From a bacterium (GTDB lineage: Bacteria > SAR324 > NAC60-12): 64,000 nt of DNA. The notes below the pieces were generated by a model. That model was not told the DNA's origin. It was given only the letters and a program-made list of their open reading frames with translations, and did not search any database. Positions 3,220 through 51,844 of this stretch are shown piece by piece. The stretch spans positions 672,001-736,000 of the forward strand of contig CBDDTI010000747.1 in NCBI GenBank assembly GCA_965233585.1, given 5' to 3'. Made by a program: the position numbers and the translations under genes. Numbering within the stretch: the first letter of the stretch is position 1; each line of letters opens with the position of its first letter.

Positions 3220-4782
3220 ATGTCAAACAACCCTTTTGAATTTAAAATAGAACATCAACAAGTTTTCCTTCGGTTTCTCAAACCCTGCTCAGTTTCTAAA
3301 ATTCTTGAACCCCTGCAATATGAACTCTTCCAGTATGAGGTTGAGTATCTGCCAGACAGACTTTTGAAGCTGTCCCAAAATCAAAGTCAAACGTGGCAAT
3401 ATCTTTGCGAGTTTGGCAGCCGTCTTTATCAATACGAAGTCCGTCTTTCTCAAGGACACCATGAAGCCTATTTGACAATCGTCCCGCCCTTTCACGATGA
3501 CATTGAACCCCCAACTTTTGAGGAATTGCACCAAGTGTTAAAGCATCATGGGGTCTTGTCAGGCATTTTGGAATCAGAATGCCAAAAGATGCTACAAGAT
3601 GAAATTTTTTATGAACCTTGTCTTGTGGCAAAGTCTTCTCCTGCGGTGCAAGGGAACAATGGCAAACTTCAAATCATTTATCCTGCTGACAAACACTTCC
3701 ATCATTTACAGCAAATCAATTATCGTGAAAAAGGGACGTTGAGAACGGTTGTGCAAGGTGAATGGATTGCACGATTGATTCCCCCCACTACTGGGCAAGA
3801 TGGTTGGCTAGTCAATGGTCAAATTCTTTCTGCCAAAGCAGGCAAACCTTGTAGAGTGTATGCAGGAAAAGGGGTCACTTACAACCAAGACACTCATCAA
3901 TTTCATACAGAATCTGCAGGCTTTTTGCTTTTTGACAACAAACGATTGTCTGTGGAAAACATTTTGCGTGTGCCTTGTGTCAATCCAGAAATTGGCAATC
4001 TTAACTTTGATGGCAAGCTCTACATTGAAGGAGACGTGGAAGATGGCTATGAAGTCCGTGCCACTCAAGGCATTGAAGTCAAAGGAGTCGTTGGAAAGTC
4101 GTTGTTGGAAACCGATGGTTCTCTTTATATTCATGGGGGCGTCTGGGGTGCAACACTCCGTGCCAAGCAAATCATTTTTTTCCGTTTTGCATGTGATGCT
4201 AAAGTGCAACATGCCAGACACATCTACATTCAGCATTATGCCACGCACTGCGATTTGGAGGCTGAGGTGTCAGTCAAGGTGAAGGCACAAGATGGCTTCA
4301 TTTATGGTGGAAAAACAAGGGCAGGGCTTTTGATTTCTCTACCAAATGCAGGGTCTGAAAAGTGGGAAGTGACCAGCATCTTTCAAACAGGACTTTCTGC
4401 AAAAGAGGCTCAAACGTTGGCTTCTACTAAACAACAAGCTAAGCAACTTGAAGAATTTAAACGTCTGCGACACCAGTACATCAAACACCGTCAAAACATC
4501 AATCCCAAGCCCTTTCAAACGCTTTGTAACAACCTTCATGCACAAGCACGACTTCAACATCGTTTCAAGGAAACAGGGCATTCGTTCCAAGATGGAGTCA
4601 TTTTGGTCAATAATCACATCTTTCAAGGCAGTCAAATTCAAATAGGGCAGGCAGGCTATCTTGTCCAAACAGCACTCAAACATGTTGCTTTTATTGCACC
4701 CAAGTCCAAAGTCACCCCAACAGACATAGATGACCTAGACCTTCAAAAATTTCTCATTGCCAAATCACATCATGCAAATTGA
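3220..4782 (+). CDS. DUF342/FapA family protein
   Basis: Family-typical segments GVLSGI, VVQGEWIARLIPPTTGQDG and GNLNFDGKLYIEGDVEDGYEVRA (beta-solenoid). Confidence 0.8.
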   Translation: MSNNPFEFKIEHQQVFLRFLKPCSVSKILEPLQYELFQYEVEYLPDRLLKLSQNQSQTWQYLCEFGSRLYQYEVRLSQGHHEAYLTIVPPFHDDIEPPTFEELHQVLKHHGVLSGILESECQKMLQDEIFYEPCLVAKSSPAVQGNNGKLQIIYPADKHFHHLQQINYREKGTLRTVVQGEWIARLIPPTTGQDGWLVNGQILSAKAGKPCRVYAGKGVTYNQDTHQFHTESAGFLLFDNKRLSVENILRVPCVNPEIGNLNFDGKLYIEGDVEDGYEVRATQGIEVKGVVGKSLLETDGSLYIHGGVWGATLRAKQIIFFRFACDAKVQHARHIYIQHYATHCDLEAEVSVKVKAQDGFIYGGKTRAGLLISLPNAGSEKWEVTSIFQTGLSAKEAQTLASTKQQAKQLEEFKRLRHQYIKHRQNINPKPFQTLCNNLHAQARLQHRFKETGHSFQDGVILVNNHIFQGSQIQIGQAGYLVQTALKHVAFIAPKSKVTPTDIDDLDLQKFLIAKSHHAN

Positions 4783-9026: not shown

Positions 9027-9713
9027 ATGATGATTCCTGCAATTCAATTCGTCAAAAATTATCTTTCACTTCCTTTCAAAGGATTGCCCCAAGCATGTAG
9101 TTCGGCCTACTTAGAAATTTCTGAATTTCTTCTTGATGTCCCTCTTCATCTTATCAAAAGGCTGATACGGCTGACGCTTTTATTCCTTGTTGTTACTTTT
9201 TCTTGGATTCCAAACAGTTTTGGAGAACCCGCAGTTACTGGAATTGGATTAGGTACGACCTACGGTGGTACCTATGGAATTTTGGTGGCGGGTCCTTTGG
9301 GCAATTTAGAAGGACAGATTGTAGGTTTTGGTTTGGGACGGGTTGAATACCCAACAAAAGTTGAAGGAGAAGATAGCTCAGGTGAATTTGGATTAAGTGG
9401 GATGTGGGGTAAGTATTTTGAAGGACTTCCCAAATCTTACTATGGAGTTTCCGTGGGACCTGTTGCGTCTTATGCAGAAAATAAATGTACAAGATCTAGT
9501 AGCAGGTATAAGTGTAAGGGAAAGGGAGGTGTTTTATATGGTCTTAATTTAATCGTAGGAGGTTCCATCTGGGAGGATTTAAAAGGGTTTTACAGTGACC
9601 TTGGCGTTACAATCTGGTCTCAATCAGTTGAGTTTGAGATTTTTGGAAAGAAGTATAAGCGTGATGCTGTTGGTCGTTTAGTCTTTAGCATTGGATGGAA
9701 CTTAGAGAATTAA
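9027..9713 (+). CDS. hypothetical exported protein, probable small outer-membrane beta-barrel
   Basis: Gly/aromatic alternating strands and C-terminal LVFSIGWNLEN. The hydrophobic signal segment sits near aa 45-66, so the start is uncertain. Confidence 0.55.
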   Translation: MMIPAIQFVKNYLSLPFKGLPQACSSAYLEISEFLLDVPLHLIKRLIRLTLLFLVVTFSWIPNSFGEPAVTGIGLGTTYGGTYGILVAGPLGNLEGQIVGFGLGRVEYPTKVEGEDSSGEFGLSGMWGKYFEGLPKSYYGVSVGPVASYAENKCTRSSSRYKCKGKGGVLYGLNLIVGGSIWEDLKGFYSDLGVTIWSQSVEFEIFGKKYKRDAVGRLVFSIGWNLEN

Positions 9714-9838
9714 GTCACATATGTAGGTAAAAGTCTCATTGAAAAAAAGGAGGTGTCTCATGGTCTGAATTTACTCGTAAATGACTCATATCTCATAAAT
9801 TTAAATATTTTTAACTCTAAACTTAAAATAGGTTCACA

Positions 9839-10375
9839 ATGAAAATTTTAACATACATTAAAAATAACGCTGAGAGTTTAATGAACTCTTTTGGATTGTT
9901 TGGCTTCTTCCAAGGTTTTTTGAAAGGAACAAAAAAACTTGTTAGATCATTTTTGACCTTAGCTTTAGGAATGACCCTTATCTTTGTTCTAGCTGGGTGC
10001 GCTAAAGATGATGATGATTCTTCTGGTAGTGATGATGATGATCCTCATTTCAATGATCCTTATTTCAATAATCATTATGATGATGATAGTGATAGCCAAG
10101 TAACAATTTTAACCTTAAAAAATGAAACTAGTCAGCCCTTTGGTAAATTTTATATTTCTCCTAGCAGTTCTGATGATTGGGGAGACGATATGCTTCCAAA
10201 GACTTTGTGGCCAGGAGAGAAGTATAAATTTACTATTTCTGATTGTAATAAGGAATACGATTATAAATCAGTAGATTTTAAAGGTCGGGTGAGCATTATG
10301 AGAAGAGATTACGTGAAATGTGGTGAAGATTTTATTTTAAGAGTCCTTAGATTCAGAGACCGAGATGAATCTTAA
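9839..10375 (+). CDS. hypothetical lipoprotein with Asp-rich linker
   Basis: Lipobox LAGC followed by DDDDSSGSDDDD and a small beta domain (YISPSSSDDWGDDML). Start uncertain. Confidence 0.65.
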   Translation: MKILTYIKNNAESLMNSFGLFGFFQGFLKGTKKLVRSFLTLALGMTLIFVLAGCAKDDDDSSGSDDDDPHFNDPYFNNHYDDDSDSQVTILTLKNETSQPFGKFYISPSSSDDWGDDMLPKTLWPGEKYKFTISDCNKEYDYKSVDFKGRVSIMRRDYVKCGEDFILRVLRFRDRDES

Positions 10376-10868: not shown

Positions 10869-10884
10869 TGGTATGTTCTTTGCA
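10869..10884 (+). promoter_or_regulatory. putative sigma54 (-24/-12) promoter of the 10931-18102 operon
   Basis: TGGTATGTTCTTTGCA has GG-N10-GC spacing and is close to TGGCACG-N4-TTGCW. It lies 46 nt upstream of the ATG. Confidence 0.6.
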
Positions 10885-10930: not shown

Positions 10931-12022
10931 ATGAAAAGGCAATTTTTAGTTATTGGTTTACTTGTTTGGTCAACGATTCTCTTTGCTCAGGAGCAAGAAG
11001 AGGTCATTCCTGACTCAGAGACAGAGAACTCTTCAGAAGAAGGTTGGAAGAGCAAGTGGAATGACCCCCGTATGAGACAACTTGAAGAGATTTCAGGAAA
11101 GCTGGAGACTTTAATGAACAAGCAAGTCAATGTGTCTTCTGCCGCAGTTTACGAGGTGCGTTTTTCCCCACAGATTGACAAGAATTTTAGGCAAGCGGCA
11201 TTGAGCAAGATGTATCAAGTCTTTAGCCGTGTTCCAGATTTTTATGCCGCACGTTGTGATGAATGCTTTCAAATCCGTACTAAAGTGTCAGGTAACACTT
11301 TGCGTGTAAGTCGTGGGATTGCAGACCCTGAACATCGGCGTAAAATTGCAAGACGTATGAACACAGAAGGATTTATGAAGATCATCATCTCCCAAGTAGA
11401 TCAACAACTTTCTGTTGCCATTGAAATTTACGGGGCAAAGAATGGACAGCTTCTTTTTAGTGAAGTGGTGGCAGGAACGCCTCCCATTCCTGAACCCAAT
11501 GCCTTTGATTTGTATGTAGGTCAAATGAGGTTTGACGTTGCCTTTGAGTCTGAGTCTGCAGATTTTTCCGAAACACAAACCTATCAGCTACCAACTTTGA
11601 CGTTTGGAAAGTCTTATCAAATTCTGGAACATTGGTATTTTACAGGAGACATTAGCATTTTGGCGGATATAAGTCAGAAAGAAGAAGATGCACCGGAGGT
11701 CACTGGGGGCTTTTCAGGACTTGCCTTTTATGGAAGAAGTATTTACGACTTTATCAATATTGGTGTCAATGACAATGTCAGTTTTGGACTCATTACAGGG
11801 ATTGGGCAATGGCTTTCTCCACAGCTCAAATTCCCTGTTTTGTATGCTGTGGGGTTGCGTATGATGATGGGCAGGACTTTCTTGTTTAACTTTGAATACA
11901 TTTCTACTGAAATTAAAGAGGTTCAAGCCACATACACCGACCCAGAAACAGAAGAAGAAGTGGAAGACATGAAAGCATCTGTCAATTCCGCAACCAGTGT
12001 CTCTTTAGGAATCCGTTTTTAG
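10931..12022 (+). CDS. exported protein with predicted C-terminal outer-membrane beta-barrel
   Basis: Signal peptide (MKRQFLVIGLLVWSTILFAQ), CxxC (RCDEC), amphipathic beta strands and a terminal beta-signal-like SVSLGIRF. Confidence 0.65.
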   Translation: MKRQFLVIGLLVWSTILFAQEQEEVIPDSETENSSEEGWKSKWNDPRMRQLEEISGKLETLMNKQVNVSSAAVYEVRFSPQIDKNFRQAALSKMYQVFSRVPDFYAARCDECFQIRTKVSGNTLRVSRGIADPEHRRKIARRMNTEGFMKIIISQVDQQLSVAIEIYGAKNGQLLFSEVVAGTPPIPEPNAFDLYVGQMRFDVAFESESADFSETQTYQLPTLTFGKSYQILEHWYFTGDISILADISQKEEDAPEVTGGFSGLAFYGRSIYDFINIGVNDNVSFGLITGIGQWLSPQLKFPVLYAVGLRMMMGRTFLFNFEYISTEIKEVQATYTDPETEEEVEDMKASVNSATSVSLGIRF

Positions 12023-12025
12023 GAA

Positions 12026-13636
12026 ATGATCATGAACTTACAAACTCAATTTTCAGTTGCTCTTTTGACTAGCCTTGCACTTGGGGCGTGTTCTTCAAAA
12101 AGTGATATTGAAGTAGAACAGAATCCAAATACTTCTCGTGTGATCTATACGCATACAAGAAAAAATGAAGTGGTTACAGTGACGGAAGAAAAAACCAAAG
12201 ATGAACATTTGATTCGTGTCAATATAGAACGTGATGGTGAGGTTTCAGAGGCAGTGCATCAAATCCAAGAGCATAATTTTGTCTTTGAAGTGCCACTGAG
12301 AGAAGCCCCTGCTGGAGTATTGGCAAGGAAAGTTGCAGACTATGAAGCCTACATTCAAAAAATCTTTTATGAAGAGATTGCCCAGCACATCTCCACTCAA
12401 CGTTTCACAACGACTGTCAGGGTGTCATGGGATGCGGGTCAGCTAGATACGTTGGATTCTAACTATGACGACCTCAAAACGGACACCTCACAAGTAGATG
12501 TCAGACTAGGCAGTGCCATTTCAAAACTTGATGTGTCAGTCTTGATAGATCAAGGGTTGCCCTCTCGCTATGATGAATTTGTCAAACAACTGATTTTGGC
12601 ACAATATTTTTTCCGTCCTACCAGAGGAGATGCTTTTGAAGTCAGACGTGCCGTGTTTCCTGCCCAAGACTTTTTAGGCAATGACTTTCAATCACGGCTT
12701 TTGACTTATGAATCAGAGGTTCGTCAAAGGTTTGACCAAACTTTAAATCAACACATTGACCCAGAAAATTTTGAAGTTTCATCAAGAATTTTTTGGAATC
12801 AACAAAAACTAGAAGACCTCAAGTTCCAATATCAAAAAGACTCTGGACAACGTCAATCTTCGCAAGATGTTCAATTTGTGACGGCTGTTGACAAACTGCA
12901 AGTAGCAGTCTTATTGGATAGGAATTTATCCAAAGAAAATGATGAATTTGTCAAGTCTCTTGTCTCTGCGCAAGCAGATTTTCAGCAGGACAGAGGAGAT
13001 GAGGTCAAGGTGCAACGAATCATCTTTCCTGCCAAAGGTTCTGTTGGTGTGACGCATAGTGAGAAGTTGGAGAAAACCTTGCGAGACCTCTTGACCAGCT
13101 ACATTGCACCTAAAAACTTTTTTGTTAAAGTTCAACTCTTACCCCCGAAAGAAGCAGACCAAGCAGGCAGGGCGCCTATCCATGTTGGAGTGGTTTTGAA
13201 TGACTTGCTTGACCCAAAAATTGATGACTTTGTCAGGCAAATCATTCCTTTTACTTTGAATACTGATGAAGAATACGGAGACGTCATAGAGGTGACTCGC
13301 AAACGATTCCCCGAAAATCCTGAAATCTCTCAACAAACCGCAGTTTCCAGCCCTAGCACCAATGACGTTGCTCAAACCCAAGAGGTTCAAGACATCTTTG
13401 AACAAATCAGGATTTATTATGAACAAATGGATTATGACAATGCTTTGGAATTGACTCAAAGGGCATTGATTATCGCATCTGACCGTGAGCAAAAAGTGAA
13501 ACTGCTCAAGATGAAGGGGTCTTTGCATTACTTGTTGCAAGAGCCTGAAAATGCACGCAGGGCGTGGAATGAAGTGTTACGGATTGAACCCAGCGATGAG
13601 GAAGCTAAACAATCTTTAAACATGATTGACTCATGA
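12026..13636 (+). CDS. lipoprotein with three FliF C-terminal (RBM3)-like repeats and a C-terminal TPR
   Basis: Lipobox LGAC-S. Repeats end in TRGDAFEVRRAVFP, DRGDEVKVQRIIFP and EYGDVIEVTRKRFP, each preceded by a KLxVxVL(I/L)D-like strand. TPR helices at the C-terminus. Confidence 0.7.
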   Translation: MIMNLQTQFSVALLTSLALGACSSKSDIEVEQNPNTSRVIYTHTRKNEVVTVTEEKTKDEHLIRVNIERDGEVSEAVHQIQEHNFVFEVPLREAPAGVLARKVADYEAYIQKIFYEEIAQHISTQRFTTTVRVSWDAGQLDTLDSNYDDLKTDTSQVDVRLGSAISKLDVSVLIDQGLPSRYDEFVKQLILAQYFFRPTRGDAFEVRRAVFPAQDFLGNDFQSRLLTYESEVRQRFDQTLNQHIDPENFEVSSRIFWNQQKLEDLKFQYQKDSGQRQSSQDVQFVTAVDKLQVAVLLDRNLSKENDEFVKSLVSAQADFQQDRGDEVKVQRIIFPAKGSVGVTHSEKLEKTLRDLLTSYIAPKNFFVKVQLLPPKEADQAGRAPIHVGVVLNDLLDPKIDDFVRQIIPFTLNTDEEYGDVIEVTRKRFPENPEISQQTAVSSPSTNDVAQTQEVQDIFEQIRIYYEQMDYDNALELTQRALIIASDREQKVKLLKMKGSLHYLLQEPENARRAWNEVLRIEPSDEEAKQSLNMIDS

Positions 13637-14703
13637 AATATCTGATTTTTATTATTCTTTTACTGACTGCACCAGTCATGCTTTTGGCTCAACAAGAAGT
13701 CAGAGACCAAGCTGATGACATCTTTCAGCAACTGATGGGACAAGATGCTCCATCAAGAGAAGAAGGAGAGGCTGAACCGACTCAAACGGCTGAAGCACCA
13801 CAGGTGGAAGCAGAAGCAGAGCCTGAAAACTCTCAACAACCTGCTAACTCTGAAAATGAAGTCACACAAGAGCAAGACTCTATCACGCCTTTGCAACTGC
13901 AAGAGATGTTGCGAGCATCTATCAAACAAGAAATCAAAATTCCTGATGAGGCTCAACGTCAGTTTAATGACAAACAGCTTAGTCAAAAAGTGAAAGAGTT
14001 CTTAAAACTTTCATTGTCTGAAAGACTCATAGATGTCGTGGTGGACACTCGTTACATTGTGCAGTTAGTTCCCATTGTGAAAAAAAGTAGTCAACTTCAA
14101 AAAATCAAATTGCCCGGTTTTGAAAACTACGTTTGGACTCCTGCATTTAAAAATCATAACTTATCGTTTTCTTATCAAACCAGACCTTACCGTACTTATT
14201 TTATTCTTCTCAATGGTCCAAAGACCCTTGTCAACTACGATTTGGTTCAAAAACGCATTGTTGAAATAGACCCTACTACCGATTGGGAAAATCGGGATTT
14301 GCTGAGAGTGATCAATGTTTCTTACGAGACACCTGAATCTTCCCCTTTGCAGATTGCTCAACAAAAACAGACTCAACAAGAAGAAATTCCCCAAATAGAA
14401 CCCAAAGAGGCAGTGCCAGCACCCCTTTCTTTGGAAGAACAGTTGGAACAGGAGAAGCAGTTTAGTAAACACTTGCTTTCTGCAAGAGATGAGTTTTTTA
14501 AGGACAATTTAGATGCGGCATTGGATAACCTGATTGAAGCCATCAAGTTTAATCCTAAATCTGCTCAAGCCTACGAGATGCTTGGCTCTGTTTACTATCG
14601 TTTGGATTGGAAGGAGAAGGCATTGCATTACTGGGGAAAGTCATTGGAACTTTACCCAGATAATAAGACTTTACAAAGATATTATGACAATTTGAGACAA
14701 TGA
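13633..14703 (+). CDS. exported protein with a divergent FliF-like ring domain and C-terminal TPR
   Basis: Signal peptide, Q/E-rich linker, LSQKVKEFLKLSL...VVVDTRY...KLPGF segment and a clear TPR (AIKFNPKSAQAYEMLGSVYY). Confidence 0.65.
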   Translation: MKYLIFIILLLTAPVMLLAQQEVRDQADDIFQQLMGQDAPSREEGEAEPTQTAEAPQVEAEAEPENSQQPANSENEVTQEQDSITPLQLQEMLRASIKQEIKIPDEAQRQFNDKQLSQKVKEFLKLSLSERLIDVVVDTRYIVQLVPIVKKSSQLQKIKLPGFENYVWTPAFKNHNLSFSYQTRPYRTYFILLNGPKTLVNYDLVQKRIVEIDPTTDWENRDLLRVINVSYETPESSPLQIAQQKQTQQEEIPQIEPKEAVPAPLSLEEQLEQEKQFSKHLLSARDEFFKDNLDAALDNLIEAIKFNPKSAQAYEMLGSVYYRLDWKEKALHYWGKSLELYPDNKTLQRYYDNLRQ

Positions 14704-16499
14704 AATGGTCAGCTATGAAACTGTGGCAACTTCTGCTTGCATTTTTGTTGGCATCGTCTGTTTTTGCACAAGAACGAGTGCCTTCTTTGCAACAGTATGA
14801 ATTAGGGCTTGAAAGTAAGATTCGCAGAAATTTAGAACACTACTTACAACCTAAAGACTATGTGTTGCGTGTGTCAGCACTAGGCAGTCCTTATGTTGCC
14901 CAAGAGATTTCTCCAACAACTCAAGTTGCTCAACCTGTTGAAAGTTTGCCCGGATTTTCTGCAGACCCTCCAGAAACACCAGTTGTTCAACAGATTCCTA
15001 AATCAAACACTCCAACACTTTGGGAGGTCTCCAGAGTTCAAATAGACCTTATCATGCACAAAGAGATTTCCTCTTCTTTGCAAGAATATCTGTTAAGGTC
15101 TGTTCCTTTGATTGCTGGATTGATTCCAGAGCGAGGCGATGCTTTTAATTTCCTACCAATCACCCCCAATGAAGTCATTAAACTTGAACCAGAAGAAGAA
15201 GCACCTGTTGAACCCTTAGAAAATTTGGAAGAAGAGCCACTTGTTGAACCTTTGACATGGTATGAACAACTTCATCAACAATATGGCATTTGGACTTGGG
15301 TTGCTTTGGGTGTAGTCGTATTCTTGTTTTTATTGCTTCTCATTTTATTGTTCAGACGTCCTAAAAAAATGGTTGAACAACCTGTGCAACAAGCAACACC
15401 TGATTTGAAACAACAGTTTGAACAAGAAAAACAAGAGGTTGAAAAGGAACGCACCAAAAAGATGCAAGACTTCTTTGCCCAAGAAGAACAAACCAAACTT
15501 GTTCAAGAGATTGTCAAAGAATTGATAGGACATGAAGATTGGAAAACAGAGCTTGTCCATGAATGGAGTAAAGGACGTAAAGACAAACTTCCTTTGCTGA
15601 TTTGTGCTTTGGGAACATTCACCTCAAGAAGTCTCTTTGCTAAGGTTCTGGGGTCATCTGTGTATGGAAAACTGGAACGAACCGCCAACGATTTGTCTCC
15701 TCAAGATTCAGAAATCGCTGACATTCTCAAAGAATCCTATGACTTCATCAAAGCCAAAAGTATTGACACCCCTCAAAAATATCAAAATGACCCGTTCCGT
15801 TTTTTAGATGAGTTAAGTCCTTCACAAGTCAGTTTTTTGGTGAAAGATGAACCCATCAGAATCAAAGCGATTGTGTTAAGCCGTCTGAACAGTGAGGGTG
15901 TCTCGCAGATTCTCAAAAAAATGCCTCCAGATGAACAATCGCAAGTTTTGATTACGATAGGCAATTTACATGAATTGCCCCTTGACCTGATTGAAGGGGT
16001 GGCAATGGAGTTAACCTCTAAATTGCCTGACTTGCCTGACGAAAACACAGCCTCTTTTGATGGGGTGGACATGTTGGCAGACCTCATCACTTTTGCTGAC
16101 AATCAAACAAGAAGGGACATTTTGAAACAGCTTAAACTCAATGACCAAAAGCTAAGTCTGAAAGTAGAAGAGCGAAGTTTTGTTTTTGAATCTATCCCTT
16201 TGATTCCCAAAGAAGTTTTAACAGAAGCGGTAAGACGCATGAACTCTGATGATGTTTTGACAGCATTTGTTGGGGCAGATCGTGAAATCCAGAAAGCAGT
16301 CATCTTGTGTTTTAATGAGACAGTGCGTGGCAATATGGTCTCTCAACTCAAAGCCAAGTCTCCAACTGCTGGTGAGATTGATGATAAGAAACGATTGTTT
16401 GTGGCACAAATCAGACAACTAGCAGACGAAGGAAAGATTGCCCTCAAAGACCTTTATCTGAACTGGCAAAAACGAAGCAGAAAAGCAAGAGTCGCCTGA
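14700..16499 (+). CDS. fusion: FliF-like periplasmic ring domain, TM helix, FliG middle and C-terminal domains
   Basis: YELGLESKIRRNL...GLIPERGDAFNF (FliF-like), then TM WVALGVVVFLFLLLLILLFRR, then DPFRFLDELSPSQVSFLVKDEPIRIKAIVLSRL (FliG-M) and SFVFESI...IRQLADEGKI (FliG-C). Confidence 0.8.
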   Translation: MKWSAMKLWQLLLAFLLASSVFAQERVPSLQQYELGLESKIRRNLEHYLQPKDYVLRVSALGSPYVAQEISPTTQVAQPVESLPGFSADPPETPVVQQIPKSNTPTLWEVSRVQIDLIMHKEISSSLQEYLLRSVPLIAGLIPERGDAFNFLPITPNEVIKLEPEEEAPVEPLENLEEEPLVEPLTWYEQLHQQYGIWTWVALGVVVFLFLLLLILLFRRPKKMVEQPVQQATPDLKQQFEQEKQEVEKERTKKMQDFFAQEEQTKLVQEIVKELIGHEDWKTELVHEWSKGRKDKLPLLICALGTFTSRSLFAKVLGSSVYGKLERTANDLSPQDSEIADILKESYDFIKAKSIDTPQKYQNDPFRFLDELSPSQVSFLVKDEPIRIKAIVLSRLNSEGVSQILKKMPPDEQSQVLITIGNLHELPLDLIEGVAMELTSKLPDLPDENTASFDGVDMLADLITFADNQTRRDILKQLKLNDQKLSLKVEERSFVFESIPLIPKEVLTEAVRRMNSDDVLTAFVGADREIQKAVILCFNETVRGNMVSQLKAKSPTAGEIDDKKRLFVAQIRQLADEGKIALKDLYLNWQKRSRKARVA

Positions 16500-17470
16500 T
16501 GCTAGAAAGAATCATCACCTTCTTTGGAATTATCATAGGAATTGGATTAATTGGCTTTGGGATTGTTTGGCCTGATAAATATTCTAATGCCTATCTTTAC
16601 AACATTGCACTGATGGAAGCAGACATCAAAGCGATGCAAGAGGCACGGACTCCTTTTGCACAAGTGCAGGCTAAAAGGAGGGAATTGGAAACCTACCGCG
16701 AATCTATTCCTGCCAATGTGGCTCGCTTTCTTGATTTGAAATCTTTTGTCATTGTGTTTGGTGGGTCTTTTGCCGCCTTGCTCATTGCTTTCCCTGCCAG
16801 AAAATCACTGCGGGCATTTTTGTTCATCTCCTCTGCTTTTTTTGGCAAAGACAAGCAAGGGTCAGAATTTGCAGAATACTACAGCACCTTTGTCAAATTT
16901 TCTGAAAAACTCTCTGCACGGGAACTCATCACCGACGAAGACTTTGCATCAATTGAAGACAAAAGACTTCGGGAATGGTTAGAGTACTTCACTGCATCAG
17001 ATTCTGTGCCTGAGGAGATGATTCAAGAAATTATTCGCTCTGAAATTGCCGCCGTAGAACGTACATCAGAAGAAGAGGCAGAACTCCTTGACTTTATGTC
17101 TAAGGTTGCACCTGCATTTGGCATGATTGGAACGGTCATTGGTTTGATTTTGATGCTCGGCAATGTGAATGCAGATGACATTGATATTTTTAAAATCATT
17201 GGTGCAATGGGAGTCGCTATGATTACAACACTTTATGGGGTGGCAGTAGCAAATCTTATCTTCACTCCGATTGCTACCAAACGAAGAAGCCTGATGTATT
17301 CAGAATTGTATCTGATGGAAATGGCAAGAGAGGGAATCCTTTATCTCAAAAACAAACAAACTCCAGAACTTGTCTCAAGAGACCTTATTATTTATTTGCC
17401 AGATAGGATTAGACAACGAATTGAGCAAGAGAAGTTAGAAAAACTCAAATCAGGTGATTTAGGTCTATGA
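16499..17470 (+). CDS. motA: MotA/PomA-like stator A subunit with a periplasmic insertion
   Basis: FLDLKSFVIVFGGSFAALLIAFP, APAFGMIGTVIGLILML and AMITTLYGVAVANLIFTPIATK motifs. Confidence 0.85.
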   Translation: MLERIITFFGIIIGIGLIGFGIVWPDKYSNAYLYNIALMEADIKAMQEARTPFAQVQAKRRELETYRESIPANVARFLDLKSFVIVFGGSFAALLIAFPARKSLRAFLFISSAFFGKDKQGSEFAEYYSTFVKFSEKLSARELITDEDFASIEDKRLREWLEYFTASDSVPEEMIQEIIRSEIAAVERTSEEEAELLDFMSKVAPAFGMIGTVIGLILMLGNVNADDIDIFKIIGAMGVAMITTLYGVAVANLIFTPIATKRRSLMYSELYLMEMAREGILYLKNKQTPELVSRDLIIYLPDRIRQRIEQEKLEKLKSGDLGL

Positions 17471-18102
17471 GAAAGAATGTAGGAGAATCAACATGGATGG
17501 TCACTTATGCAGACATGGTCACCTTGCTGTTTATCTTCTTCATCTTGTTGACTGCCATCTCTGCACGTCCCAAAAACTGTAAAAATATCAGTGATTACAT
17601 GGCATCTAATCCACAGAATTTTGCCAACTACGAGCTTCGTGCTACCAAATTACAATGTATCATTTCTCTCCCTCAGGATTTTTTGTTTTCTTCAGGCGAG
17701 GCAAAGCTGAAAGAAGGGGCATTGCGTGAGTTATCCCCTTTTTTTCAAATGATCAAAAACCTTCCTGAACACCAAGAAGATTTAGTCGTGGTAGAAGGAC
17801 ACACTGACAATGTACCAATCCGCACCAAAGAGTTCCCAAGCAACTGGGAGTTAAGTTCGGCTCGTTCTCTTTCTGTGGCAAGGTTTCTGGTGGACCGTCT
17901 TGGATATGCCCAAGAGACAGTGTCAGTCAAAGCCTTTGCAGACACCCGCCCCAAAGTCCCCTATCAAGACCCCTACAATCGCCCACTCCAAGGAAATGAG
18001 CTTAAAAATGCAAGAAAAGCGAACAGACGCATTGAAGTCCTCATCATAGACCAACCCCGCTCCAGAGAAGATGCCAGCATCCTCTTTCAAACTGTCCAAT
18101 AA
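17467..18102 (+). CDS. motB: MotB/PomB-like stator B subunit (short), OmpA-like peptidoglycan-binding domain
   Basis: WMVTYADMVTLL with the conserved Asp, VEGHTDNVPI, SNWELSSAR and NRRIEV. Confidence 0.88.
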   Translation: MRKNVGESTWMVTYADMVTLLFIFFILLTAISARPKNCKNISDYMASNPQNFANYELRATKLQCIISLPQDFLFSSGEAKLKEGALRELSPFFQMIKNLPEHQEDLVVVEGHTDNVPIRTKEFPSNWELSSARSLSVARFLVDRLGYAQETVSVKAFADTRPKVPYQDPYNRPLQGNELKNARKANRRIEVLIIDQPRSREDASILFQTVQ

Positions 18103-18148: not shown

Positions 18149-20050
18149 CTATGGAAGGATTGGTAAGGATTCTGCCAAAGTAGATTTGAAAAAAATGACT
18201 TGCGGTGCAAACAACAGTGTTTGTTCTTGTTGCAAATAGGAGTCACTTTGAAAACTTGCAGAATTGAGAGAGTGCAGTTGTTTTAGATGAAAGAGTGCAT
18301 CATCATTTCGTTGTGTTTGGGCATAGATGAGGCTTAATCGTTGTAAAAAGATGTCATGTTGCAAAGTGGATTGTCGTCTTTGAAGGAAAGAGACAAGCAG
18401 TTGTTCTGCTTCTTGAAGCATTCCCATCTTGACGTAAAGCAGGCTTAAATCGTCAATCAAAGAGACTTGTTCAGGGAACAACTGATACCCTTGCTCGTAA
18501 ATCTTTTGTGCTTCTTTGTCTTGTTTAAGATATTGCAACGCCCGACCTGCTTGTAAATGCAACAAACCTGCTCCTTTTTTTGCGTTGAGAAAGGGCTGCA
18601 AATAAGTCAAAGTGTTGTCATAGCGTCCCATTTGATTGAGAATGCTGGCGTGAAGATAAGCAATGTCTTCACTGGATTGTTTTGACAAATTTTGGGTCAT
18701 AGCAAAGGCTTGCTGATAACGTTTTTGAAAGTAAAGCAGTCTTGCCAAAGTAAATCTGACTTTGGGAGTGTCTTGAAGTTCTTGCAGTTGCAAGGTCAAT
18801 TTTTCTGCAAGTTCATACTGACCACGCAAGATGTAAAGGTCTATTTGCAAATGCAATAATTGTGGGTCAAGTGAAGATTCTGCTTGCATTTCATTGAGTG
18901 CATTTTCCACACGGTTCCAGTTTTGGGTTTGCATGTCTCTTTGAATTTTAAGCATCTGATAACGTTGGTTGCTAAAATCCAACTCCAATGCTCTAGCAAG
19001 CTCATTGTCTCCTTGTAAAGTGTTGCCTTCCTTGAACAAAACCAGTGCCAGTAAATATCTTGCTTCTGCCTGCATTTCATCTATTTCCACAGAACGTCTC
19101 AACCAGATTTTTGCCTCTTCAAATTGGTCTTGATACAGAAAGACTGATGCCAATAACACCATGCTTTTTGCATCAAGTGGAACGTCTTCTAAAAGATTTT
19201 GCAAAGTTTGTTGTGCAAGAAGCCACTTCTTTTGTTTGATGGCAATGCGGGCAAGAATTTGTCTTTCTAAGACACTATAAGGTTCTTGGGTTTGTGCAAG
19301 AATCGCTTTGTCGTTTCCTTGTAAAAAGAGAATTTTCAGTAAATATTCCTTCGCTTTGGCAAGGGTTGGTTCGTCTGCCAATAATTGTTGAACTAAGACT
19401 TTGGCATGGTAATAATTCCCTTGTAGCATCTGAATTTGCACCTCTAAAAGCCGATATTCTGGATTGCTTGGTTCAAAGAGTAGGACATTTTTCAAATGAT
19501 TTTCTGCCACTTCAAAGTCACGTTGTTTGATGTTGAGTCTTGTCAGATAGGCTTGAATTTCTAAGGTAGGTCCTGAACGTTGCAATGCCACTTCCAATGC
19601 GCCAATAGCACGTTCGTTGTCTCCAATCCTCTCATAAGTCATTGCCAGTTTGAGGTAGGCAGAGATGAGGTCACGGTCTAACTTAATGGCTGTGTTCAGG
19701 GAGTCAATAGCACGGCTATACTTCTTATTTTGATACGCAATGCTTCCTAATAGCTCAAAGTAAATTCCAACGATGGGAGAAAGGCTTAACGCTCTTTGAA
19801 TGTTCAGTTCCGCTTGTTCTAAATTTTGTTGTTCAAAATAAGCCAACGCTAGCTGATAGTATGCAACGGCGTCATTCTTGTTATTCTGAATGCGGGTTTG
19901 TTGTTCAGTAATAAACTGTTCTTTCTGTAATGCGTCCATTCTCTCAAACTGTTCAAGCGTCGTTGGAGAGGTGCAAGCAAGGCTTAAGAAGCACAAAAGA
20001 CTAAGGACGTGTGATGGTATAGGTTTGAGAAGGCGAGCTTTCATTGCCAT
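18149..20050 (-). CDS. TPR-repeat lipoprotein
   Basis: Lipobox SLAC and many TPR-like helical repeats (AYYQLALAYF, AYLKLAMTYERIG). Confidence 0.8.
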   Translation of the reverse strand: MAMKARLLKPIPSHVLSLLCFLSLACTSPTTLEQFERMDALQKEQFITEQQTRIQNNKNDAVAYYQLALAYFEQQNLEQAELNIQRALSLSPIVGIYFELLGSIAYQNKKYSRAIDSLNTAIKLDRDLISAYLKLAMTYERIGDNERAIGALEVALQRSGPTLEIQAYLTRLNIKQRDFEVAENHLKNVLLFEPSNPEYRLLEVQIQMLQGNYYHAKVLVQQLLADEPTLAKAKEYLLKILFLQGNDKAILAQTQEPYSVLERQILARIAIKQKKWLLAQQTLQNLLEDVPLDAKSMVLLASVFLYQDQFEEAKIWLRRSVEIDEMQAEARYLLALVLFKEGNTLQGDNELARALELDFSNQRYQMLKIQRDMQTQNWNRVENALNEMQAESSLDPQLLHLQIDLYILRGQYELAEKLTLQLQELQDTPKVRFTLARLLYFQKRYQQAFAMTQNLSKQSSEDIAYLHASILNQMGRYDNTLTYLQPFLNAKKGAGLLHLQAGRALQYLKQDKEAQKIYEQGYQLFPEQVSLIDDLSLLYVKMGMLQEAEQLLVSFLQRRQSTLQHDIFLQRLSLIYAQTQRNDDALFHLKQLHSLNSASFQSDSYLQQEQTLLFAPQVIFFKSTLAESLPILP

Positions 20051-20738
20051 AAGAATCTACTAATCTGAATTGATAAAGTGCTGTTTGCATGATTTCTTGG
20101 TCTAGGAAAAATTCGTCAGAAATCGGTTGATTGTGAATGGGTTGTCGTGTCCACTTGTCAGAGGGGGCTTTGCGATAAATATTCATCTGATAATAAACAT
20201 TTTCTGGCTGGTCTGTGCCTAGTTTGAAAAGCATTTTTTCTAATGGAGCTTGCCATCTCATCAGCACAGCAGATGAGGAGTTTAGGACAAGTTTGACTTC
20301 AGGTAAGCTAGGAAATTCGCTAAAATGTTGCAAACGTGTCAGGACTGTGGCAAACGTCCTTGTTTTATTGATGTCTTGGTGTTTGAGTTCAAATAGATAA
20401 CTTGAAAGAGTCTTGGGAAGGTCAAGCATTAAGAACGCACGGGATTCTTCTATGATGAGATGATGGCTTGGTAATGGCACTTGTACACTTGAAATGAGGG
20501 TGGCATCGCATTTGATGCAGTATCTGGCAAATTCAAAAGTTTTGATGACAATGAAACCTTGTGTTGGGACGTCTTGTGAAAAATTCCAAGTTAATAGAAT
20601 TTTCTCCCCTTGCTGACGGGCTTGAAATTGTTCAATGGAGCTAGATTTTTCAGGAGGTGAAGGGGCTGTTTTATAACCGCATGCTAACAGAGTCAGTTGC
20701 ACGAAGCAAAGCCAAATGGCGATGTCTTGCCGTTTCAT
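20001..20738 (-). CDS. hypothetical lipoprotein with FN3-like beta domains
   Basis: Likely start MKRQDIAIW at 20738, overlapping the upstream stop. Lipobox LLACGYKTAPSPP and C-terminal VDSYGNESSPS. Confidence 0.65.
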   Translation of the reverse strand: MKRQDIAIWLCFVQLTLLACGYKTAPSPPEKSSSIEQFQARQQGEKILLTWNFSQDVPTQGFIVIKTFEFARYCIKCDATLISSVQVPLPSHHLIIEESRAFLMLDLPKTLSSYLFELKHQDINKTRTFATVLTRLQHFSEFPSLPEVKLVLNSSSAVLMRWQAPLEKMLFKLGTDQPENVYYQMNIYRKAPSDKWTRQPIHNQPISDEFFLDQEIMQTALYQFRLVDSYGNESSPSQTYTITRP

Positions 20739-21172
20739 CTGCTTATTTGTTGTTGGAAATTTCTCAAAATCCTCTGTATCTGCTTTAAATCTGTTTGTGT
20801 ATAGTGGCTTTGCAAGATGTCTATTTTTTGGTTCATAAAGCACCATTGCTTTTGTGCAGGCTCATTTATCATGGGAATTTGTAAACAATGAAGTTGCTGA
20901 GAGGCTGTGTTCCAATAAAAAGCGTAATCAGCATCTTGTTCTATTTGTAACCTTAAATTGCCCCCCCATTGTTCCAACTGATAGATTCCCTTATCAACCA
21001 AATGTCCTGCACCATACGAAACTGACCAATCTGCATTGGCAATTTTAAACTCATAACAGCCTGCGTTAAATTTGACAGAACAAAATAAAATCTTGGGTCT
21101 CACAGTTTGGAAACAAAATGGTTGTTGCGCTTGCCAGTTTTGTAAAGAACTCCTAAAAAACCATTCTTGCAT
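20735..21172 (-). CDS. hypothetical protein resembling a starch/carbohydrate-binding module
   Basis: GCYEFKIANADWSVSYG and GGNLRL resemble the small beta-sandwich modules of pullulanases/SusE-type proteins. Confidence 0.45.
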   Translation of the reverse strand: MQEWFFRSSLQNWQAQQPFCFQTVRPKILFCSVKFNAGCYEFKIANADWSVSYGAGHLVDKGIYQLEQWGGNLRLQIEQDADYAFYWNTASQQLHCLQIPMINEPAQKQWCFMNQKIDILQSHYTQTDLKQIQRILRNFQQQISR

Positions 21173-46506: not shown

Positions 46507-47370
46507 ATGCTACATCAGACCAATTTATTAGACCAAATAGACCACCTTGCTCACAGAAAAATAGAGTTAAATACTATTTATACGGAAGATTGTTTGGAGA
46601 CGATGAAAATGATGCCTTCCAATTTTTTAGACATGACGATCACATCTCCACCTTATGACGACATGAGAGGTTACGAGGGGAATCATTCAGTGCCATTTCA
46701 ATCTATTGCAAAAAGTCTTTATAGAGTGACGAAAAATGGAGGCATCGTGGTTTGGGTGATAGGAGACCAGACTAAAAATTGGAATGAAACAGGGATTTCT
46801 TTTAAACATGCCCTTTGTTTTAAGGATGTAGGTTTCAACTTGTTTGATACGATGATTTATTTAAAAACTCCCAGAGGGGCGTGCGGTAACAACCAAAGTT
46901 ATTGGCAAACTTTTGAATACATGTTTGTCTTTAGCAAAGGAAAGCCCAAGACAATCAATTTGATTTGTGATCGTGAGAATAAAGAAAGTCGCAAAGGAGA
47001 TAGTGGCACAAAAAGACTACATAACGGGGAACTTTACAATCACCATCGTGGAGGGTATAACAAGTTTGGCAGAAGAACCAATGTTTGGGAGTATCAAGTC
47101 GGTCGTGGTCATAGTACGAAAGATGAAATTGCTTTCAAGCACCCTGCTATTTACCCTGAAAAACTTGTAGAAGATCATTTAATCTCTTGGAGTCAGGAAG
47201 GTGATGTCGTGTATGACCCCTTCATGGGTTCTGGAACCACGGCTAAGATTTGTAAGCTCAAAAACAGATATTACATTGGTAGTGAGATTAATCCTAAATA
47301 TGTAGAATATGCAAAAGAAAGGCTGTCGTGGTATCAAAATATGACATGGGACAGCTCAAAGATGATGTGA
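46507..47370 (+). CDS. orphan beta-class DNA methyltransferase (SPPY, probably N4-cytosine)
   Basis: ITSPPY, HPAIYPEKL and YDPFMGSGTT motifs. No recognisable nuclease next to it. Confidence 0.85.
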   Translation: MLHQTNLLDQIDHLAHRKIELNTIYTEDCLETMKMMPSNFLDMTITSPPYDDMRGYEGNHSVPFQSIAKSLYRVTKNGGIVVWVIGDQTKNWNETGISFKHALCFKDVGFNLFDTMIYLKTPRGACGNNQSYWQTFEYMFVFSKGKPKTINLICDRENKESRKGDSGTKRLHNGELYNHHRGGYNKFGRRTNVWEYQVGRGHSTKDEIAFKHPAIYPEKLVEDHLISWSQEGDVVYDPFMGSGTTAKICKLKNRYYIGSEINPKYVEYAKERLSWYQNMTWDSSKMM

Positions 47371-50557: not shown

Positions 50558-51844
50558 TTACGATAACTCTTGGTAAATTTGCTTGGCTAGTTCTTGGTTG
50601 TATCCATGCGATGTCATGTTGGCATAAATTCTTCCACGAACTGGAAAACCTAGAAGATAGAGGTCTCCTAGTAAATCAAGGATTTTATGCCGTACAAATT
50701 CGTCTGGAAAACGTAATTCTGTGTTCAATGCTCTGCCTTCATGCAAGATGATGTGAGAATTAAGGTAACCGCCTCCTACCTTGCCTAATTTTTGAGCCAT
50801 GTCAATATTTTCAAAAGTATTAAAAGAACGTGCAGGGGCAATTTCAGTCACAAAATCATTCGTTTTGACATTAAACGTCAGACATTGTTCATGGATAGGT
50901 GCAGGATAATCCACCCTCATTTGAACTTCAAAACCATCGTAAGGCTCAATGAACAGATGCTTTTCTTCAATAGATTCTTGCCCCACTAAGATTTTTTTAT
51001 TGATCACAATCTCTTTCCATTTTTCAGATTGGGGAACAACTTCTGCCTGTTGAATCAAATCACAAAAATCTTTGGCAGAACCATCAATGTTAGGAATTTC
51101 TTCATCAACTTTGATGAGAGCATTGGAAACCCTCATCATGTAAAGTGCTGACATCAGATGCTCCACCGTCCGTGCCTTCTTGCCTAATGCTGAAACTGCT
51201 GTTGAATTTGCTGTAAACGTTTGAGCATTTTGTGCATAGGAATCCAAAGCTGTAACATGGGCAGGAATCATTTGACCATCAAGGGATTGAAAGACAATGC
51301 CTCGGTTTTCTTCCAAAGGACTAATGATGATGCCCGTCCTGCGACCTGTTAGTAGCCCGACACCATTTAATACAACATTTTTTTTGACAGTGCATTGCAG
51401 TTGGTCAATGTTTTTCAAACAGGCAGCACCGTTATTTGGGAGGTTGAGATGTTGTTGAGAAGGGTTGGAGGCTCTTTTTTGATTAGGCAGATTGAGAATA
51501 AAACTGATTTTTCCAAGTAAACTTTCCAGTTGAAAAGGTTTTTCTAAAAAATCAGAGGCTCCCATTTTGATTGCATTGACAGCAGAATCAATGCCCGCAT
51601 GTCCACTCATCATAATAATAGGAATGTTTGGAAAATTTTGACGAAACACCTTCAGTAGTTCCATGCCATCGGTACCGGGCAACCAAATATCCAAAAGCAT
51701 CAAGTCAGGCTGTTGTGCTTGAAGGGCTTCCTGAATCAGGTCAGCATTGTAAAAAACTTTGGTTTCATATCCTTCATCGTGCAAGATTTCCTCTAACATG
51801 GAGCAAATCACACGTTCATCATCAACAATATAAATCAATCCCAT
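50558..51844 (-). CDS. lpxC: receiver domain fused to UDP-3-O-acyl-GlcNAc deacetylase LpxC
   Basis: REC part: IVDDE, LLDIWLPGTDG, MSGH, FLEKP. LpxC part: QCTVKK...GVGL, TVEHLMSAL, EIPNIDGSA, EIAPARSF, RFPDEFVRHKILDLLGDL, TSH. Confidence 0.88.
   Translation of the reverse strand: MGLIYIVDDERVICSMLEEILHDEGYETKVFYNADLIQEALQAQQPDLMLLDIWLPGTDGMELLKVFRQNFPNIPIIMMSGHAGIDSAVNAIKMGASDFLEKPFQLESLLGKISFILNLPNQKRASNPSQQHLNLPNNGAACLKNIDQLQCTVKKNVVLNGVGLLTGRRTGIIISPLEENRGIVFQSLDGQMIPAHVTALDSYAQNAQTFTANSTAVSALGKKARTVEHLMSALYMMRVSNALIKVDEEIPNIDGSAKDFCDLIQQAEVVPQSEKWKEIVINKKILVGQESIEEKHLFIEPYDGFEVQMRVDYPAPIHEQCLTFNVKTNDFVTEIAPARSFNTFENIDMAQKLGKVGGGYLNSHIILHEGRALNTELRFPDEFVRHKILDLLGDLYLLGFPVRGRIYANMTSHGYNQELAKQIYQELS

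Follow-up and report, generated by a model that had tools for sequence, protein, structure and literature searches.

In this study we describe a six-gene operon of SAR324 bacteria that looks like an undescribed motor assembled from flagellar parts. It lies in a 64-kb stretch of genomic DNA (the window: positions 672,001 to 736,000 of contig CBDDTI010000747.1, assembly GCA_965233585.1), whose genes match SAR324 and which belongs to a contig of 1.07 Mb. The fourth gene of the operon encodes, in a single polypeptide, an exported FliF-like domain, one transmembrane (TM) helix and the middle and C-terminal domains of FliG, and a dedicated flagellar-type MotA/MotB stator accompanies it. On the basis of these parts, their homology, topology and conservation, we propose that the module is a non-flagellar rotor-stator machine of the cell envelope, derived from the flagellar motor core and devoid of export apparatus, rod, hook and filament, a proposal that in our judgement stands as close to being right as to being wrong.

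Architecture of the fusion protein

The fusion and its parts, in window coordinates, are as follows.

14700..16499, + strand: FliF-like/FliG fusion, 599 amino acids (open reading frame, ORF, without interruption; Pfam, NCBIfam, PDB profile and hhalign)
14769..15179, + strand: periplasmic domain resembling ring-building motif 3 (RBM3) of FliF, residues 24-160 (profile comparisons; LPGF and RGD invariant in the family)
15288..15353, + strand: single TM helix, residues 197-218 (hydropathy scan, mean 3.19; followed by RRPKK on the cytoplasmic side)
15354..15779, + strand: cytoplasmic helical linker and a stretch equivalent to the FliF C-tail and FliG_N of the wider family (wider-family profile alignment)
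15819..16031, + strand: FliG middle domain, residues 374-444; EHPQ replaced by DEPIRIKA (Pfam and alignment)
16128..16445, + strand: FliG C-terminal domain, residues 477-582; carries SFVF and an altered torque helix (Pfam, alignment and hhalign)

A first-pass annotation of the window, made from the sequence alone, had proposed that a FliF-like part and FliG are joined here in one ORF, with a signal peptide in front and a single TM helix between them, and our analysis agrees with it on each of these points. The ORF is open over its 599 codons, and both FliG_M (PF14841; residues 374-444, E 4.2e-11, 43.3 bits) and FliG_C (PF01706; residues 477-582, E 3.9e-12, 46.8 bits) exceed their Pfam cut-offs. 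The possibility that the C-terminal half might be better matched by MgtE-N or by generic ARM repeats than by FliG is not borne out, since MgtE_N stays below threshold (18.2 bits against a cut-off of 25.9) and the strong PDB matches of the fusion-family profile are FliG chains only, the best being 1lkv (E 6e-21). The NCBIfam model for fliG, TIGR00207, matches residues 361-582, covering model positions 106-328 only (E 2.3e-21), and misses its equivalog cut-off (76.5 bits against 226.7). In the same way, hhalign pairs the SAR324 fusion family with the FliG of SAR324 (97.1%, 203 columns) in the M and C part only, and FliG_N is undetected at its own position by Pfam and hhalign, the Pfam FliG_N match in the fusion overlapping the M domain. 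Because the curated cut-offs and several defining motifs are missed, we do not file the protein as FliG or FliF proper.

The N-terminus is hydrophobic and ends in ...SSVFA/QE, so that residues 1-23 read as a putative signal peptide. The exported part comprises about 170 residues, the RBM3-like domain being followed by an acidic, proline-rich linker, and the TM helix found in the hydropathy scan leads into a cytoplasmic part of 380 residues. The predicted topology is thus of type I, N-out and C-in, with FliG in the cytoplasm. In an alignment of 25 fusions from SAR324, the signal peptide, LPGF, RGD, the TM helix, DEPxKIKA and FxFxS are all retained.

The fusion is not an assembly artefact joining two genes: contigs from three public runs bridge the ORF with zero differences (the runs come from two samples of one study, possibly the source of the window DNA), and the architecture recurs in 29 loci. 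In one marine SAR324 genome (L015:7929-9857) the fusion is split into two ORFs of 235 and 329 amino acids, possible causes being a frameshift, an error of assembly or a genuine split.

The FliF-like half and the wider fusion family

The N-terminal half of the fusion has no Pfam match. In particular, YscJ_FliF (PF01514), which covers RBM1 and RBM2, is not matched, whereas the FliF encoded in the same genome carries it at E 1e-54; with a periplasmic part of only some 170 residues, the absence of RBM1 and RBM2 noted in the first-pass annotation is confirmed. As the SAR324 family alone shows no significant match to FliF, the link to this protein rests on the wider fusion family. When 1.84 billion representative sequences were searched with HMMER, 4,666 matched, and for 151 the E value was 1e-30 or better. 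Among the 150 best matches we counted 123 with lengths of 485-777 amino acids, and most of these 150 span the profile from about 7-35 to about 580-590. A word-indexed search returned 47 proteins, most of about 600 amino acids, with 28-40% identity and at least 95% query coverage; their named carriers are SAR324 or Lambdaproteobacteria. A search with the canonical FliG of SAR324 gave, among the matches listed, only close SAR324 sequences of at least 68% identity.

The SAR324 fusions and the wider family are homologous over 539 columns (hhalign, probability 100%, E 8e-65). All 50 distant fusions that we aligned carry FliG_M and FliG_C, and 11 of them reach Pfam YscJ_FliF_C (PF08345); a homologue search started from the alignment of these 50 yielded five proteins. 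The wider-family profile is colinear with Salmonella FliF 365-560 (PDB 6scn, E 1.7e-7) and then with FliG 5-320, and it aligns to the FliFs of SAR324 over 156 columns, corresponding to residues 230-433 of the FliF from the genome of the window (95.5%, E 1.6e-8). These alignments, together with the 539-column homology, justify describing the fusion as FliF RBM3, TM2 and tail followed by FliG, and it is in this way that the RBM3-like domain claimed at first pass finds its support.

A dedicated stator

Two genes follow the fusion gene, each overlapping or abutting the end of the one before it.

16499..17470, + strand: flagellar-type MotA, 323 amino acids (Pfam MotA_ExbB, PF01618, E 5e-23)
17467..18102, + strand: MotB, 211 amino acids, with the TM aspartate (YADMVTLL) and an OmpA-type peptidoglycan-binding domain (MotB_plug E 7e-13, OmpA E 1e-13)

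That a flagellar-type MotA and MotB adjoin the fusion was also part of the first reading, and Pfam, NCBIfam and the PDB profile search all concur. MotA has a MotA_ExbB channel domain with four TM helices. It misses every NCBIfam equivalog cut-off, and among these models it matches MotP, PomA and MotA (E 1e-41 to 1e-30) far better than TolQ (2e-4) or ExbB, which is also far weaker; its best PDB matches are flagellar MotA (E 1e-28) and PomA. As compared in the window and in loci L003, L018, L023, L026, L028 and L030, the periplasmic loop between TM1 and TM2 of this MotA is lengthened by a conserved insertion (PDxYSNYY..., about 45 residues), and the C-terminus of the protein, SGDLGL here, follows the invariant pattern SG[DEQ][LF][GN]L. 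MotB, in which a PK[ND]C motif is conserved, is about 20 residues shorter directly after its TM helix, at the canonical site of the plug; the channel aspartate is kept in all nine SAR324 MotBs and in both MotBs of the distant cassettes described below.

The association of this stator with the fusion is both local and phylum-wide. In the window and six related loci, motAB overlaps or abuts the operon, being downstream in L003 and forming the upstream first genes in five. We surveyed 88 genomes of the phylum, tallying presence and absence by hand from tables; the counts overstate independence because the genomes are related. The long-form MotA is present in 43 of the 88, in 39 of the 44 with the fusion and in four of the 44 without it. 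The five fusion genomes that miss it are 59-89% complete, and one of them retains a fragment at a contig end. Two of the four genomes with MotA and no fusion are metagenome-assembled genomes of a carrier genus that are about 50% complete, and the other two show a weak match to gene 1 of the operon on the MotA contig.

In the marine genus, motAB lies on another contig and still tracks the module. This unlinked marine motAB (L079-L091) is an isolated pair, usually divergent from a gene for a 460-amino-acid RadC-like JAB-domain protein. A sigma-54 promoter shared with the operon, considered as a possible tie between the two, was rejected, as the element is upstream of the pair in none of the 13 loci.

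Motifs and the rotor-stator charge interface

The EHPQ motif of FliG forms its FliM-binding surface. The first-pass readings of this motif, of the Gly-Gly linker and of two further motifs as EPIR, DG, SFVF and an altered torque helix proved correct in an alignment of 25 SAR324 fusions, 50 distant fusions and eight canonical SAR324 FliGs. EHPQ aligns to EPIR, or to DEPI with a shift of one register; its column in the SAR324 fusions reads E (25), P (25), [AVI] and K or R (16 and 7), and the motif is not kept in the 50 distant fusions. The GG linker aligns to DG, with [D/N/E]-G in 25 of 25 SAR324 fusions and D, N or Q followed by G in 43 of the 50 distant ones. The changes to EHPQ and GG make it plausible that the fusion would act as a rotor without a FliM/FliN ring or CheY switching, and be unidirectional. 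As for MFxF (MFTF), the fusion reads SFVF, although the F-x-F pattern itself persists: both phenylalanines are invariant among the 25 SAR324 fusions, and the final one is present in 43 of the 50 distant fusions.

The torque helix of the fusion is NETVRGNMVSQL, in which R281 is replaced by T and D288/D289 by S/Q (E. coli numbering). E540, R543 and K551 are charged residues of this helix that are peculiar to the family. The position of R281 is occupied by K (16), Q (7) or T (1) in the 25 SAR324 fusions and by R (38) or K (12) in the 50 distant ones, whereas the positions of D288 and D289 are never acidic in the former, and in the latter are D in 12 and E in 13. Charge pairs between MotA and FliG, R90-D289 and E98-R281, are described in two reports (PMC12505986; PMC7564593). 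On the MotA side of the module, the R90 column holds S, V, N or Y, with K or R one or two residues before, and the E98 column holds E, A or D, with an invariant D directly before; in both columns a register shift is possible. One classical charge pair thus seems, from these alignments, to be lost on both partners, and the other roughly kept. The notion of a re-wired stator interface put forward in the first-pass annotation therefore stands for the acidic pair, but not for the remainder of the interface, where R281 is basic in most relatives and the E98 position, or an acidic residue flanking it, appears to be retained.

The operon around the fusion

Six closely packed genes, whose stop and start codons overlap, make up the operon, and the fourth of them encodes the fusion. 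The promoter element and the three genes that precede the fusion are listed here.

10869..10884, + strand: sigma-54-type -24/-12 element TGGTATGTTCTTTGCA, 47 nt upstream of gene 1
10931..12022, + strand: gene 1, exported protein of 363 amino acids, predicted outer-membrane beta-barrel (signal peptide, C-terminus, weak Pfam match)
12026..13636, + strand: gene 2, lipoprotein of 536 amino acids, lipobox LGAC, three RBM3-like repeats and C-terminal TPR (Pfam, hhalign)
13633..14703, + strand: gene 3, exported protein of 356 amino acids, RBM3-like domain at about 108-235 and C-terminal TPR (Pfam TPR, hhalign)

The pattern TGGYAYN5TTGCW has a single match in the window, with 0.61 expected by chance, which alone is not significant. 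In 17 of 20 loci, TGG-N9-TGC[AT] occurs in the 300 nt that precede the leading gene of the operon, against a background of 0.077 per 300 nt, and expression of the operon is probably sigma-54 dependent. Scans for sigma-70 promoters and terminators within the operon gave results at chance level.

The product of gene 1 is predicted to be an outer-membrane barrel with a periplasmic domain. Its N-terminal domain has an invariant CxxC, and the protein ends in ...SLGIRF, with a terminal aromatic residue; all 18 aligned orthologues end in G[WIFL][KQR]F, and ten of them match Pfam OMP_b-brl weakly (best E 8.7e-5). Its neighbours in the ESM atlas, to be taken as a lead only, are labelled LpoB/CsgG/TolB_N and OMP_b-brl, and its profile has no match in the PDB.

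The two other partners bring more copies of the domain found in the fusion. In the gene-2 lipoprotein, Pfam detects YscJ_FliF_C (residues 276-334, E 2.1e-8) as well as TPR, and hidden Markov models of the N-domain of the fusion locate RBM3-like repeats at 152-213, 276-336 and 384-430, which end in RGDAFEV, RGDEVKV and YGDVIEV, respectively. This lipoprotein aligns to FliF by hhalign (95.2%, E 2.6e-8), and in the whole genome the N-domain profile of the fusion matches only the fusion and this neighbour. The gene-3 family aligns to the N-domain of the fusion over 122 columns (hhalign, 90.4%, E 1.4e-6), and its KLPGF loop (K159, L160, P161, G162, F163) is invariant.

Neither the genes upstream (9027-10375) nor those downstream (18149-20846) are counted in the module, because they have no counterpart in related loci. 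No genes for an export gate, rod, hook or filament, nor for FliM or FliN, were found in the operon by Pfam and the survey of the window.

Distribution in SAR324 and beyond

Relatives of the fusion were found in 29 loci of GTDB species genomes, all from SAR324 or from records labelled 'Deltaproteobacteria'. Wherever about 4 kb of upstream DNA is available, genes 1-3 precede the fusion in the same order (19 of 19 related loci). Among the 88 genomes of the phylum, the N-terminal half of the fusion is present in 44 and gene 1 in 45, and both in 42.

In the genome of the window, fliF lies about 430 kb from the operon (L047:736-3363, + strand; about 255.9-258.5 kb on the same contig, G000:C747). The gene directly after it is fliH, and fliG is missing from between the two; the one canonical fliG of the genome sits on a different contig (C746, about 65 kb).

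This genome has two FliM genes, of which one is an orphan: a paralogue of 348 amino acids with FliM and FliMN_C domains (L038:7622-8668, - strand, the same as G000:C746:613621-614667), whose neighbours are non-flagellar, among them an FtsZ-like gene, a gene for a Kelch/fn3 protein and RecJ. We considered the orphan as a partner of the module and discarded it, since extra FliMs also occur in genera without the module (genus g10, module in 0 of 9). Because there are two FliM genes, the fusion might still borrow FliM, though no FliM paralogue tracks the module.

A scan of metagenomes with a distant subgroup of ten fusion sequences retrieved eight loci. In five of them a homologue of gene 1 directly follows the fusion (N-domain, E 1e-8 to 1e-12), and in L039 and L044 this pair is followed, in turn, by a TPR protein, MotA and a MotB with C-terminal TPR. 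These two, which are flanked by housekeeping genes, are among the three metagenome loci with more than about 3 kb of downstream DNA; in L040 the fusion stands alone, with unrelated genes downstream. The TPR protein of the distant loci shares its C-terminal TPR with both RBM/TPR proteins of SAR324, and the five components of the distant cassette (fusion, barrel-like protein, TPR protein, MotA and MotB) are all present in the operon of the window. Labels in the ESM atlas for similar clusters of 500-720 amino acids, which are leads only, name Balneolota, Bdellovibrionota, Pseudomonadota, Bacteroidota and Elusimicrobiota.

A model for the module and its alternatives

Taken together, these data allow us to propose how the module might work. 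Produced under probable sigma-54 control, the fusion would be exported N-out and anchored by its one helix, and its periplasmic domain may assemble a membrane ring in the manner of FliF RBM3, with a FliG ring covalently attached on the cytoplasmic face. The dedicated MotA/MotB, held to the peptidoglycan through the OmpA domain of MotB, would conduct ions through the channel with its conserved aspartate and push FliG_C across a partly altered charge interface. We infer that MotAB turns the fusion in this way, and that the two RBM3-like/TPR proteins and the predicted barrel protein connect the ring to the outer membrane, acting as stator scaffold, as output, or as both. The output itself, we would guess, is the movement or energising of a component of the outer membrane or cell surface.

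In a stronger form, this model would make the module a new class of ion-driven rotary machine, in which MotAB spins an RBM3/FliG ring, stacked RBM3-like rings and TPR proteins reach to a barrel in the outer membrane, and the whole is flagellum-independent and sigma-54-controlled; we advance this only tentatively, as a claim with rather more against it than for it. The module could be a re-used flagellar motor core or, more boldly, it could descend from a rotor-stator that predates the junction with the type III export apparatus.

Several observations weigh against a non-flagellar rotary machine. On the FliF side, hhalign of the SAR324 fusion family gives only insignificant values with the FliF of the same genome (6.6%) and with an alignment of 16 FliF sequences (2.3%), even if the two short segments picked out are the first and last helix-strand of RBM3, and the N-domain profile of the fusion does not match that FliF when run against the genome. 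Ring formation, the barrel fold and the contacts between the proteins are deduced from homology alone. The canonical R90-D288/D289 pair appears to be missing on both the MotA and the fusion sides, so torque generation of the classical type is not assured. Lastly, FliM is found in 85 of the 88 genomes of the phylum, including all 44 with the fusion, and as every carrier thus also has FliM, the module may yet depend on the flagellum within the phylum.

Part of the evidence would also suit a force transducer in place of a spinning rotor. In such a device, which would have no large ring free to rotate, a 5:2 MotAB motor would act on the FliG_C handle of the membrane-anchored fusion, and the periplasmic RBM/TPR proteins would relay conformational work to the outer membrane, much as in ExbBD-TonB, TolQR-TolA and GldLM. 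The loss of the acidic pair from the classical torque helix would then be of a piece with the single TM helix of the fusion and the lack of an axial rod, with the insertion in the periplasmic loop of MotA and the roughly 20 residues missing from MotB after its TM helix, and with barrel-like outer-membrane and TPR partners such as those of Tol/Ton/Glt-type envelopes. Nevertheless, we regard this explanation as unlikely: the periplasmic domain shares its ancestry with a ring-building motif, the fusion retains the whole M and C fold of FliG, which forms rings in flagella, and its stator is of the flagellar and not of the TolQ/ExbB type.

The presence of FliM in every fusion genome bears on a second alternative, a flagellar accessory, that is, an extra set of scaffold and stator proteins resembling PflA/PflB, FlgP/FlgO or MotX/MotY, or a second rotor serving some of the flagella. 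SAR324 genomes generally have two to six FliM matches, as well as several FliG paralogues; TPR proteins and lipoproteins commonly serve as stator scaffolds; one distant gene-1 homologue matches Pfam FlgO weakly (E 4e-4); and 6 kb upstream of the operon there is a gene of the FapA family. Yet the fusion is present in 44 of the 88 genomes and FliM in 85, so that half of the flagellated genomes do without the module; this, together with the remoteness of fliF and fliG and with the lack in the window of any other flagellar gene but the FapA-family one, marks it as no core flagellar part. It never adjoins flagellar genes in the loci read, it has its own tightly co-occurring MotAB, and a ring of FliF type with FliG attached would be a rival of the MS ring and not a decoration on it. 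We therefore think an accessory role quite improbable.

That the module is a functionless relic in decay, or an artefact of annotation or assembly, is very hard to believe despite scores far under the equivalog cut-offs and the loss of several canonical motifs, for it is already contradicted by intact ORFs with overlapping stop and start codons, by the invariant motifs peculiar to the family (DEPxKIKA, LPGF, RGD and FxFxS), by full-length conservation down to 28% identity and by the independent contigs that bridge the ORF.

Other genes in the window

Apart from the operon, the window holds housekeeping genes and the FapA-family (DUF342) gene already mentioned (3220-4782, + strand), which is the only other gene in it with a flagellum-associated family name. 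In one ORF (50558-51844, - strand), a response-regulator receiver domain is joined to LpxC (UDP-3-O-acyl-GlcNAc deacetylase), a combination that suggests phospho-control of lipid A synthesis. A gene for a DUF6996/DUF6997 protein adjoins an N6/N4 DNA methylase (737-2310, + strand), and a second, orphan N6/N4 methylase is found at 46507-47370 (+ strand); these genes may be remnants of restriction-modification or defence systems.

Comparison with known systems

We know of no FliG and MotAB-type stator working together outside flagella. In a full-text collection that lacks most subscription journals, neither a naturally occurring TM-anchored FliF-FliG fusion nor a cassette of this kind was found described; the searches returned engineered FliF-FliG fusions, a paper on MotAB evolution and general papers on stators only. 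In the available part of the MotAB evolution paper (PMC12505986), FliG appears once, for the canonical charge pairs. If our proposal is true, a conserved torque-generating core set upon envelope proteins would represent a second use of the flagellar motor, and the fusion would be a natural minimal rotor, in which a single protein supplies the membrane ring as well as the FliG ring and a switch complex is absent. Such a rotor would be useful for structural and biophysical studies of torque, and the module would bear on how motor and export apparatus were joined in evolution. Moreover, because the SAR324 module coexists with a flagellum and has its own stator paralogue, two rotor-stator interfaces can be compared within one cell.

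By way of the wider family, the order of domains in the fusion is colinear with the C-terminal part of flagellar FliF (RBM3 or S-ring, TM2 and C-tail) followed by FliG, and the module shares with the flagellar rotor core a stator of the flagellar type, including the aspartate and the OmpA domain of MotB. In contrast to that core, the FliF-like and FliG parts are here in one polypeptide, with a signal peptide replacing TM1 and a single TM helix, and outer-membrane and TPR proteins are partners of the module. With respect to FliF, RBM1 and RBM2 are absent and the collar insertion of RBM3 is shorter; with respect to canonical FliG, EHPQ, GG and the D288/D289 pair are replaced.

Laboratory fusions of FliF to FliG in Salmonella and Vibrio (FliFG, PDB 8z4d and 8z4g) have in common with the SAR324 protein the covalent link between the two, and 8z4d is among the best PDB matches of the wider-family profile (E 8.7e-47, in two stretches). 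The Vibrio fusions are reported to assemble into membrane rings (bioRxiv 10.1101/2023.02.06.527414; PMC11481574). Those constructs join full-length FliF to full-length FliG within a complete flagellum, whereas the SAR324 fusion is natural, truncated and encoded in an operon of its own.

Periplasmic TPR-type proteins and lipoproteins beside a stator also recall FlgO/FlgP/FlgT and MotX/MotY of Vibrio and PflA/PflB and FlgP of Campylobacter. The scaffold proteins of the module are, however, built of FliF-RBM3-like domains, and no window protein has a significant match to these scaffold families in Pfam or NCBIfam.

The module also resembles the distant five-gene cassette, which has the same fusion architecture and the same types of partner. 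The SAR324 operon differs from it in gene order, in an extra lipoprotein with three RBM3-like repeats and in a TPR partner that itself bears an RBM3-like domain, and its stator differs in the periplasmic insertion and SGDLGL tail of MotA and in a MotB without TPR. The acidic torque pair is lost in all 25 SAR324 fusions, while 12-13 of the 50 distant ones keep an acidic residue. Finally, the marine members of SAR324 have an unlinked motAB, and the SAR324 hosts are flagellated.

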